From positions 1 to 42,584 of the IMG/VR virus record IMGVR_UViG_2563366870_000004: DNA of 42,584 nucleotides; one strand, written 5' to 3'. The translations under genes and the position numbers were made by a program. The stretch comes from a virus (Duplodnaviria; Heunggongvirae; Uroviricota; Caudoviricetes). Of this stretch, positions 40,197-41,139 are shown in pieces (the first letter of the stretch is position 1; each line of letters starts with the position of its first letter). The notes beneath the pieces were generated by a model. The model searched no databases. It saw nothing but the letters and a program-made list of their open reading frames with translations, and was not told where the DNA came from.

Positions 40197-40496
40197 GTGA
40201 GAAAGTTAAGCCGACTTGAAAAATATCACATGAACAAGGTTTCAATGCGCAGTCCGTCAAAGATTGTCGCCGTTACTCCTGCGGCGATAGAGATCGAAAA
40301 ACGCGCGATTGAACGAGAGAAAAAAGGGCAGTTCCGCATTGCCGCCCACCTTTGGCTTCAGTGTATGGATGTTGCTTCTGGTGATGTTGAGCGTGCAAGG
40401 ATCGCGGTTCGCAGGGACCAATGTATCACAAAAGGTAACGGTCTTCGCCGTGGCGACTATAGCGGCATAGGATGTTGTGGGGTGGTTTATGACTAA
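40197..40496 (+). CDS. PerC/Pch-family-like transcriptional regulator (tentative)
   Basis: EREKKGQFRIAAHLWLQCMDV...ERARIAVRRDQCI resembles the PerC pattern LE.KG.WRRAA.WL; GTG start with AGAGGG ribosome-binding site. Confidence 0.4.
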   Translation: MRKLSRLEKYHMNKVSMRSPSKIVAVTPAAIEIEKRAIEREKKGQFRIAAHLWLQCMDVASGDVERARIAVRRDQCITKGNGLRRGDYSGIGCCGVVYD

Positions 40497-41139
40497 GAAA
40501 TACACACTAATCTATGCAGATCCACCCTGGATATACCGGGACAAAGCCTCAGATGGTAATCGCGGTGCCGGTTTTAAATATCCGGTTATGAGTGTGCTGG
40601 ATATCTGCCGCCTTCCTGTGTGGGATTTGGCCGATGAAAACTGTCTGTTGGCCATGTGGTGGGTGCCAACACAACCACTCGAAGCACTAAAAGTTGTTGA
40701 AGCCTGGGGATTCCGTCTGATGACCATGAAGGGCTTCACGTGGATAAAATGTGGTAGTCGACAACCAGATAAACTGGTTATGGGTATGGGACACATGACT
40801 CGCGCCAATAGTGAAGATTGCCTGTTTGCAGTAAAGGGAAAACTACCTACGCGCATTAATGCAGGGATCGTTCAGTCATTTACCGCACCGCGGCTTGAGC
40901 ATTCAAGAAAGCCAGATATCGTTCGTGAAAAACTTGTGCAATTATTAGGCGATGTTTCTCGCATTGAACTGTTCGCCCGCCAGACGTCTCATGGCTTCGA
41001 TGTTTGGGGTGATCAGTGCGAAGACCCGGCAGTGCAACTACACCCTGGATACGCGTTGGATATTGCCGGATTAACAAATGCATTCAGCAATGCTCCGCTG
41101 TCACCAACAGACAACCAGGGGCGGGAGCGTGCTGCATGA
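40489..41139 (+). CDS. MT-A70-family N6-adenine DNA methyltransferase (orphan, no cognate endonuclease seen)
   Basis: Catalytic motif IYADPPW near N-terminus; ATG at 40489 with GGGGTGG ribosome-binding site (track ORF starts 40477). Confidence 0.75.
   Translation: MTKKYTLIYADPPWIYRDKASDGNRGAGFKYPVMSVLDICRLPVWDLADENCLLAMWWVPTQPLEALKVVEAWGFRLMTMKGFTWIKCGSRQPDKLVMGMGHMTRANSEDCLFAVKGKLPTRINAGIVQSFTAPRLEHSRKPDIVREKLVQLLGDVSRIELFARQTSHGFDVWGDQCEDPAVQLHPGYALDIAGLTNAFSNAPLSPTDNQGRERAA

Follow-up and report, generated by a model that had tools for sequence, protein, structure and literature searches.

A phiV10-type prophage carries an orphan MT-A70 family methyltransferase that is probably a Dam-like GATC enzyme

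The window analysed here, a stretch of 42,584 nucleotides (IMG/VR record IMGVR_UViG_2563366870_000004, positions 1 to 42,584), holds an epsilon15/phiV10-like prophage integrated between the host genes yfgI and guaA. We examined one gene near the integrase end of this prophage, which lies between genes for a PerC-like regulator and a DUF1382 protein and is predicted to encode an adenine methyltransferase of the MT-A70 type. The open reading frame (ORF) is intact, with 216 codons running from an ATG at 40489-40491 to a TGA at 41137-41139. The sequence gca gat cca ccc tgg at 40516-40530 translates as A-D-P-P-W, which confirms the DPPW motif reported for this ORF in an earlier note made from the sequence alone and places it at residues 11-14 (nucleotides 40519-40530). 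The protein is laid out as a catalytic core of approximately residues 1-187 followed by a variable C-terminal tail, residues 188-216.

The Pfam MT-A70 profile (PF05063) matches residues 5-176 along its positions 1-172 of 172 (E = 5.8e-22), scoring 78.9 bits against a cut-off of 23.9 and covering the whole domain, and PHROG 359, labelled 'DNA methyltransferase', matches the protein with E = 3.4e-119. When the PDB was searched by sequence, the Tetrahymena DNA N6-methyladenine (6mA) enzyme MTA1 came first (E = 3e-13), followed by human METTL3 (E = 1e-5). An AlphaFold model built from 31 homologues had a mean predicted local distance difference test (pLDDT) score of 73 and a predicted template modelling (pTM) score of 0.73, with low confidence for two loops (18-29 and 97-104) and for the final 14 residues of the tail (203-216). 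Foldseek matched this model to the catalytic domains of METTL3 (E = 4e-13, TM 0.65) and MTA1c (E = 1.5e-12, TM about 0.65). Across the 31-homologue alignment 44 columns are invariant, including P12 and W14, while D11 and P13 are at least 90% conserved. The Pfam, PHROG, PDB sequence and fold matches show that the DPPW motif is not a chance occurrence, and its place near the N-terminus is the motif order expected of the circularly permuted MT-A70, or beta-class, enzymes. Family, modelled fold and motif together identify the predicted product as a small stand-alone MT-A70 adenine methyltransferase, and the earlier note's assignment is borne out by the Pfam matches and by the PDB sequence and fold matches. 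As judged by its family, the enzyme is predicted to be S-adenosylmethionine (SAM)-dependent and to act on the N6 position of adenine.

The methyltransferase gene is not new; it carries annotations already, and the family to which it belongs has been characterised. The stretch 39800-41400 is 98.2% identical at the DNA level to Escherichia phage phiV10 (NC_007804) and 96% identical to TL-2011b, both of which are epsilon15-like temperate podoviruses of the genus Uetakevirus. The phiV10 counterpart, PhiV10p33, is annotated as an adenine methylase / DNA methyltransferase, and the counterpart in TL-2011b is 98.6% identical at the protein level. Matches of at least 95% DNA identity were found in 538 of 5,426 complete E. 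coli genomes, with at least 80% of the ORF length covered in 537 of them; among the matches listed, the E. coli copies are annotated as an 'MT-A70 family methyltransferase' between a 'PerC family transcriptional regulator' and a 'DUF1382 family protein'. These phage and prophage copies are essentially the same gene as the one studied here, differing by a few amino acid substitutions, and phiV10-type phages share the same neighbours, namely AlpA, PerC, the methyltransferase, DUF1382 and a convergent integrase.

To ask how the gene has been maintained, we turned to substitution rates. Over codons 1-187, comparison with the gene of the Shiga toxin (Stx) phage PA8 gave 0.108 nonsynonymous (dN) and 1.92 synonymous (dS) substitutions per site, the latter saturated, for a dN/dS of 0.056, and comparisons with the Tyrion and epsilon15 genes gave ratios of 0.05-0.07. 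By this test the gene is under strong purifying selection and functional. It could still be a silent passenger, an intact gene that is unexpressed or inactive in its natural setting, given that the related M.EcoGV is weakly expressed in Shiga toxin-producing E. coli (STEC) O104 and that the purified Stx-phage enzyme is nearly inactive by itself in vitro (PMC10810198). However, a dN/dS of about 0.06 with saturated synonymous sites, the near full-length copies in 537 complete E. coli genomes and the conservation of the gene across Enterobacterales prophages all argue to the contrary, as does the finding that the wild-type Stx-phage gene, and not an APPA mutant, alters induction and virulence on complementation (PMC10810198). 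We therefore regard a passenger role as highly improbable.

The relationships of the protein differ along its length. Segment 81-140 is 83% identical to the Stx-phage type and 62-65% identical to the epsilon15/Tyrion/Klebsiella type, whereas the tail (188-216) matches PA8 at only 1 of 29 residues and is 86% identical to that of Enterobacter phage Tyrion. With a middle segment of the Stx-phage type and a tail of the Uetakevirus type, the methyltransferase gene is itself a mosaic.

The methyltransferase is the next-to-last gene of a string spanning 37407-41330 (Table 1), in which all genes lie on the plus strand, abut or overlap, and converge on the integrase gene (int), at whose start codon the window ends. 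The stop codon of the PerC-like gene (40494-40496) overlaps the methyltransferase start, the two genes sharing 8 nucleotides, and the stop of the methyltransferase overlaps the start of the DUF1382 gene as ATGA. The PerC-like protein also matches PHROG 868, 'transcriptional activator' (E = 5.7e-62), and the phiV10 annotation of this gene is shorter than the ORF found here. In the window the exonuclease and RecT are separate ORFs, as they are in epsilon15, whereas the phiV10 RefSeq record has a single fused RecE-RecT coding sequence of 1,761 nucleotides (L001 4230-5990).

Table 1. Features of the control region and gene string around the methyltransferase gene
Feature	Position	Strand	Basis
Repressor-like gene, 194 amino acids	36669-37253	+	Pfam HTH_3; two helix-turn-helix (HTH) motifs in phiV10 annotation
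Terminator-like hairpin	37274-37293	.	Prediction; 3' of repressor-like gene
TTACC-N5-GGTAA palindromes, candidate operators	37311-37325 and 37373-37387	.	Bracket the predicted promoter
pL-like sigma-70 promoter (predicted)	37345-37373	+	TTGACA, 17-nucleotide spacer, AATTAT; 10/12 matches
Two small ORFs	from 37407, ahead of exonuclease	+	ORF list
YqaJ-type exonuclease	37858-38757	+	Profile matches
RecT	38767-39789	+	Profile matches
AlpA/excisionase (Xis)-like regulator	39839-40087	+	Pfam Phage_AlpA; PHROG 66 'excisionase and transcriptional regulator'
38-codon ORF	40084-40200	+	Position and length match phiV10 small membrane protein PhiV10p35
PerC-like small regulator	40197-40496	+	Pfam PerC PF06069, E = 6e-7, 30.1 bits (cut-off 22.6)
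MT-A70 family (beta-class) N6-adenine methyltransferase gene (predicted)	40489-41139	+	ORF, Pfam, PHROG, PDB sequence search, AlphaFold/Foldseek, dN/dS
DUF1382 gene, last of the plus-strand string	41136-41330	+	Pfam DUF1382, E = 1.8e-29
P4-type tyrosine integrase	41334-42584	-	Pfam Arm-DNA-bind_3, Phage_int_M, Phage_integrase

The predicted promoter ahead of this string starts 52 nucleotides past the terminator-like hairpin and approximately 3 kb from the methyltransferase, and no plus-strand terminator was predicted between it and the end of the string. The counterparts of the repressor-like gene, phiV10p40 and epsilon15 gp38, are annotated 'putative repressor'. Allowing up to one mismatch, the palindrome TTACC-N5-GGTAA occurs 14 times in the window against an expectation of 0.81 ± 0.92, with copies at 3429, 5872, 8886, 8979, 10017, 27728, 30922, 30940, 34230 and 34292, two more within the divergent control region (36551 and 36599), and the last two around the promoter (37311 and 37373). 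Going by the ORF list, these copies lie mostly between ORFs. The palindrome may be a genome-wide binding site of the repressor or of another regulator. We infer that the predicted promoter is the start of an early-left operon that holds the methyltransferase. Given the promoter, its flanking palindromes and the lack of a predicted plus-strand terminator, the earlier note's placing of the gene in an early-left, operator-controlled operon is a fair reading of the layout, and early-left timing of expression would follow from that layout and from the consensus scans.

The left end of the window is host DNA. Similarity to other phages begins at approximately position 1650, and the stretch 1-1766 is host chromosome. 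Its ORFs at 485-1003 and 1019-1558, which we had considered as phage morons, are instead the host genes yfgH, which encodes a glycine-zipper lipoprotein, and yfgI (DUF5384). At the other end, int is followed by host genes, namely guaA, guaB and xseA, in E. coli SF-468, a lysogen 99.2% identical to the window. With yfgH and yfgI on the left and guaA past int in SF-468, the prophage is placed between yfgI and guaA. The homologue of yfgH in the RefSeq record of TL-2011b (NC_019445), F365_gp55, carries the label 'DNA methyltransferase', which looks like an annotation error because Pfam gives only glycine-zipper matches and a below-threshold TraT match.

No restriction endonuclease was found in the window, among the neighbours of the methyltransferase gene, or beyond int in SF-468. 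To extend this we retrieved homologues at 42 loci in other genomes, Enterobacterales with few exceptions and 55-91% identical, and were able to delimit the methyltransferase ORF and its neighbours in 36, giving 77 upstream and 31 downstream ORFs. Pfam matches of the upstream ORFs were to PerC (8), Phg_2220_C (5), NinB, DUF1317 and HTH_36 (4 each), AlpA (3), replication protein P (2), Q (1) and others, while those downstream were mainly to RusA (6), with single matches to NinH, NinX and others; no restriction endonuclease family appeared in either set. The methyltransferase is an orphan, as the earlier note had it, beyond the window as well as within it, and it does not belong to a Type II restriction-modification system with a cognate endonuclease adjoining it. 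With no endonuclease and such varied phage neighbours, the gene is a cassette that moves by itself, in temperate phages, between the exo-xis and nin regions.

The manner in which this cassette joins its upstream neighbour recurs even where the neighbour does not. In 26 of the 36 loci the upstream stop codon overlaps the methyltransferase start by 1-10 nucleotides, as in this prophage, with the upstream gene varying. In the Stx phages PA8 and 06-3462, two different upstream genes share their last 10 codons (LYIDEFENAL), and this shared end of unlike genes puts a junction of recombination immediately ahead of the methyltransferase start. On the downstream side, the pairing of methyltransferase and DUF1382 is also found in the Stx2a phages PA8 and 06-3462. 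A DUF1382 homologue is however present in phage lambda at 31045-31197, and in many other phages, and neither lambda nor these others are among the listed methyltransferase matches; DUF1382 therefore does not appear to be an obligate partner, and we rejected it as a dedicated one. We take the lambda homologue to be the exo-xis-region gene orf60a.

An orphan methyltransferase in an early-left operon invites the interpretation that the earlier note gave it, a typical anti-restriction strategy in which the phage would protect its own DNA early from host restriction. The specificity of such an enzyme might be other or broader than GATC. This is the usual interpretation of orphan phage methyltransferases (PMC10810198, PMC4659465). 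Prophage adenine methyltransferases of relaxed specificity do exist in other families, such as M.EcoGII and OS31 p25 (PMC7544214, PMC7556043), and GATC methylation blocks MboI-type enzymes (PMC7556043). On the other hand, every relative with a reported DNA specificity is reported to methylate GATC, a site that the Dam of an E. coli host has already modified, and further protection would add little in this host. The gene also sits at the far end of the string, no member has a reported phenotype related to restriction, and GATC occurs in the prophage about as often as expected (159 sites in the window against 168 ± 13 expected). The sole phenotype reported for a close relative is instead higher spontaneous induction and virulence (PMC10810198). 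Of the earlier note's interpretation, then, the methyltransferase, its orphan status and its early-left position are supported, and the anti-restriction role, which we consider unlikely, is not.

The target of the enzyme is best approached through its characterised relatives. Residues 1-187 are 83% identical both to M.EcoPA8orf6770P and to the methylase of the O104:H4 Stx2 phage P13374, two proteins that agree with each other at 207 of 208 residues. M.EcoGV of STEC O104 is highly similar to M.EcoPA8orf6770P (PMC10810198); when overproduced it methylates GATC in vivo, as cited in PMC10810198, and PMC6602927 lists it as GATC, PacBio-determined. At a greater distance, the protein is 40% identical to p32 of Serratia phage BZS1 (E = 5e-48), which in a dam- host rendered plasmid DNA resistant to MboI and sensitive to DpnI and is thus a GATC-specific MT-A70 enzyme (PMC7556043). 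The MT-A70 enzyme M.EfaBMDam of Tn1549 is likewise GATC-specific, as cited in PMC7556043. Two other candidates for comparison were set aside: M.EcoGIX, first considered as the closest characterised enzyme, is plasmid-borne and single-strand-specific according to the literature, and M.EcoMIV of the ST131 strain EC958, considered as the same gene, is a PF02086 (D12-class) enzyme. As GATC specificity is reported at identities from 40% to 83%, the simplest conclusion is that the protein is a DNA methyltransferase of the Dam-like, GATC-specific kind, and we think this probable.

Several observations weigh against this identification. Gong et al. found purified M.EcoPA8orf6770P alone to be nearly inactive on DNA, including dam- DNA, or on RNA, whereas with PNB-2, the product of its upstream gene, it formed a 1:1 complex that preferred 16S rRNA, by more than 13-fold, and 30S subunits; in the authors' view, the GATC methylation seen when M.EcoGV is overproduced may be an off-target effect (PMC10810198). 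The GATC count given above shows no sign of GATC-related selection, the tail bears no relation to the one on the Stx-phage enzyme that has been characterised, and Foldseek matches DNA-acting and RNA-acting MT-A70 enzymes alike without separating them. In the literature searched we found no experiments on the window protein or on PhiV10p33, and the timing of methyltransferase expression rests on consensus scans.

The results of Gong et al. also supply a different explanation, that the protein serves as catalytic subunit in an enzyme that methylates 16S rRNA and so tunes prophage induction, acting alone or with some other small partner such as the PerC-like protein. In the Stx phage, the methyltransferase gene raised spontaneous prophage induction and virulence in a DPPW-dependent manner, an effect attributed to 16S rRNA methylation (PMC10810198), and this is the enzyme with which our protein shares 83% of its core. 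MT-A70 enzymes are generally heteromers (PMC10810198; METTL3-METTL14 and MTA1c structures), and the overlap of the PerC-like gene with the methyltransferase start would suit a partnership. No family is commoner than PerC (8 of 77) among the ORFs upstream of homologues. BZS1 p32 has a PerC/ANR-family gene immediately upstream, and in epsilon15, Tyrion and a Klebsiella phage the methyltransferase is preceded, at a distance of one or two genes, by a PerC gene. There are also rare database ORFs, P0005 and P0002 (297 and 263 amino acids), in which the reading frame of a PerC-like protein runs on into that of the methyltransferase, owing to small indels near the GGTTTATG junction (window 40480-40500), a T-run, or an internal deletion.

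Against a 16S rRNA methyltransferase stands, first, the absence of the partner: a tblastn search with PA8 PNB-2 found no homologue in the window (best E = 1.7), and the Stx-type C-terminal region, which consists of the final 27 residues and is proposed to matter for holoenzyme formation (PMC10810198), has been replaced here, so that both holoenzyme features are missing from this prophage. The upstream protein belongs to the PerC family and has no BLAST similarity to the product of the gene that precedes the methyltransferase in Stx phage 06-3462, while PA8 PNB-2 itself gives only a weak HTH_11 match. The PerC-like proteins of BZS1 and of this prophage show no BLAST similarity to each other either. 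Upstream neighbours vary widely across the 36 loci (NinB, replication protein P, DUF1317 and Q among them), so these loci have no partner gene in common, and with PerC in only 8 of 77 upstream ORFs we rejected it as a conserved partner. The fusion ORFs, apparently products of T-run indels and known from few assemblies, may be real variants or assembly errors, and the rRNA claim comes from a SAM-consumption assay in which the modified base was unmapped (PMC10810198). We consider a 16S rRNA role distinctly unlikely for this protein. As a separate observation, a 90-amino-acid ORF at 7842-8114 is weakly similar to PA8 PNB-1 (28% over 78 amino acids, E = 3.5e-4); PNB-1 is encoded two genes upstream of the PA8 methyltransferase, and its P13374 counterpart is annotated as antirepressor AntB.

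A more speculative idea is that whichever gene overlaps the methyltransferase start acts as an exchangeable specificity subunit, PerC-like here, PNB-2 in Stx phages and others elsewhere, so that RNA, or a site in regulatory DNA, would be the target of the PerC-methyltransferase pair, which would not simply duplicate Dam. If true, the pair would tune prophage induction in approximately 10% of E. coli strains, but we think this very unlikely.

Comparison with known systems shows what is shared and what is particular to the phiV10-type gene. Like the gene in the window, those for M.EcoGV and M.EcoPA8orf6770P in the Stx2a prophages P13374 and phiPA8 encode orphan MT-A70 enzymes near int and are followed by a DUF1382 gene, and their start codons overlap the stop of the upstream gene. 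They differ in that the upstream gene encodes PNB-2, a winged-HTH protein of 118-143 amino acids, in place of a PerC-like protein, and in their C-terminal tails. The genes for PNB-1 and PNB-2 in Stx phages have a terminator between them, and PNB-2 and the methyltransferase are reported to be driven by a stationary-phase promoter (PMC10810198), whereas no equivalent terminator or promoter was predicted in the corresponding stretch here. BZS1 p32 and M.EfaBMDam of Tn1549 are also int-proximal MT-A70 family enzymes of similar size, although the BZS1/HK639 type has an insertion of approximately 23 amino acids after residue 96. The eukaryotic METTL3-METTL14 (N6-methyladenosine, m6A, in mRNA) and Tetrahymena MTA1c (6mA in DNA) share the catalytic fold and DPPW with the phage protein at 20-25% identity, but they need a paralogous inactive subunit and extra nucleic-acid-binding parts, whereas the phage protein is a bare 216-amino-acid domain, and no second MT-A70 match was found among the neighbouring genes scanned (36669-42584). 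E. coli Dam, an alpha-class (PF02086) enzyme, is an orphan too and probably has the same target, N6 of adenine in GATC, but it belongs to another class with another motif order, and the resemblance of the phage enzyme to host Dam has been described as convergent evolution (PMC7556043).

Overall, the explanation we favour, and which seems to us better than even, is a Dam-like GATC methyltransferase made on derepression. Going by the layout, the gene would be silent or weakly expressed in the lysogen and would be turned on upon loss of the repressor, together with the recombination and excision genes. By homology, its product would then modify the adenine of GATC in double-stranded DNA, serving as a beta-class functional copy of the alpha-class Dam of the host. 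Why a phage would carry such a copy is a matter of speculation, and the function of phage Dam enzymes is still poorly understood (PMC7556043). It may maintain full GATC methylation of fast-replicating phage DNA where host Dam is missing or in short supply, with possible consequences for strand choice in mismatch repair, for GATC-dependent regulation, and for sensitivity to GATC-directed nucleases in the next host.

This is otherwise an ordinary and already annotated prophage gene. What value remains comes from the literature on this MT-A70 clade, which is split between methylation of GATC in DNA, as reported for M.EcoGV, BZS1 p32 and M.EfaBMDam, and partner-assisted methylation of 16S rRNA (PMC10810198). 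Carried by approximately 1 in 10 complete E. coli genomes, the phiV10-type allele is a variant found in nature that keeps the core but has neither PNB-2 nor the Stx-type tail, and it offers a test case for what the catalytic core does alone, on DNA as opposed to rRNA.

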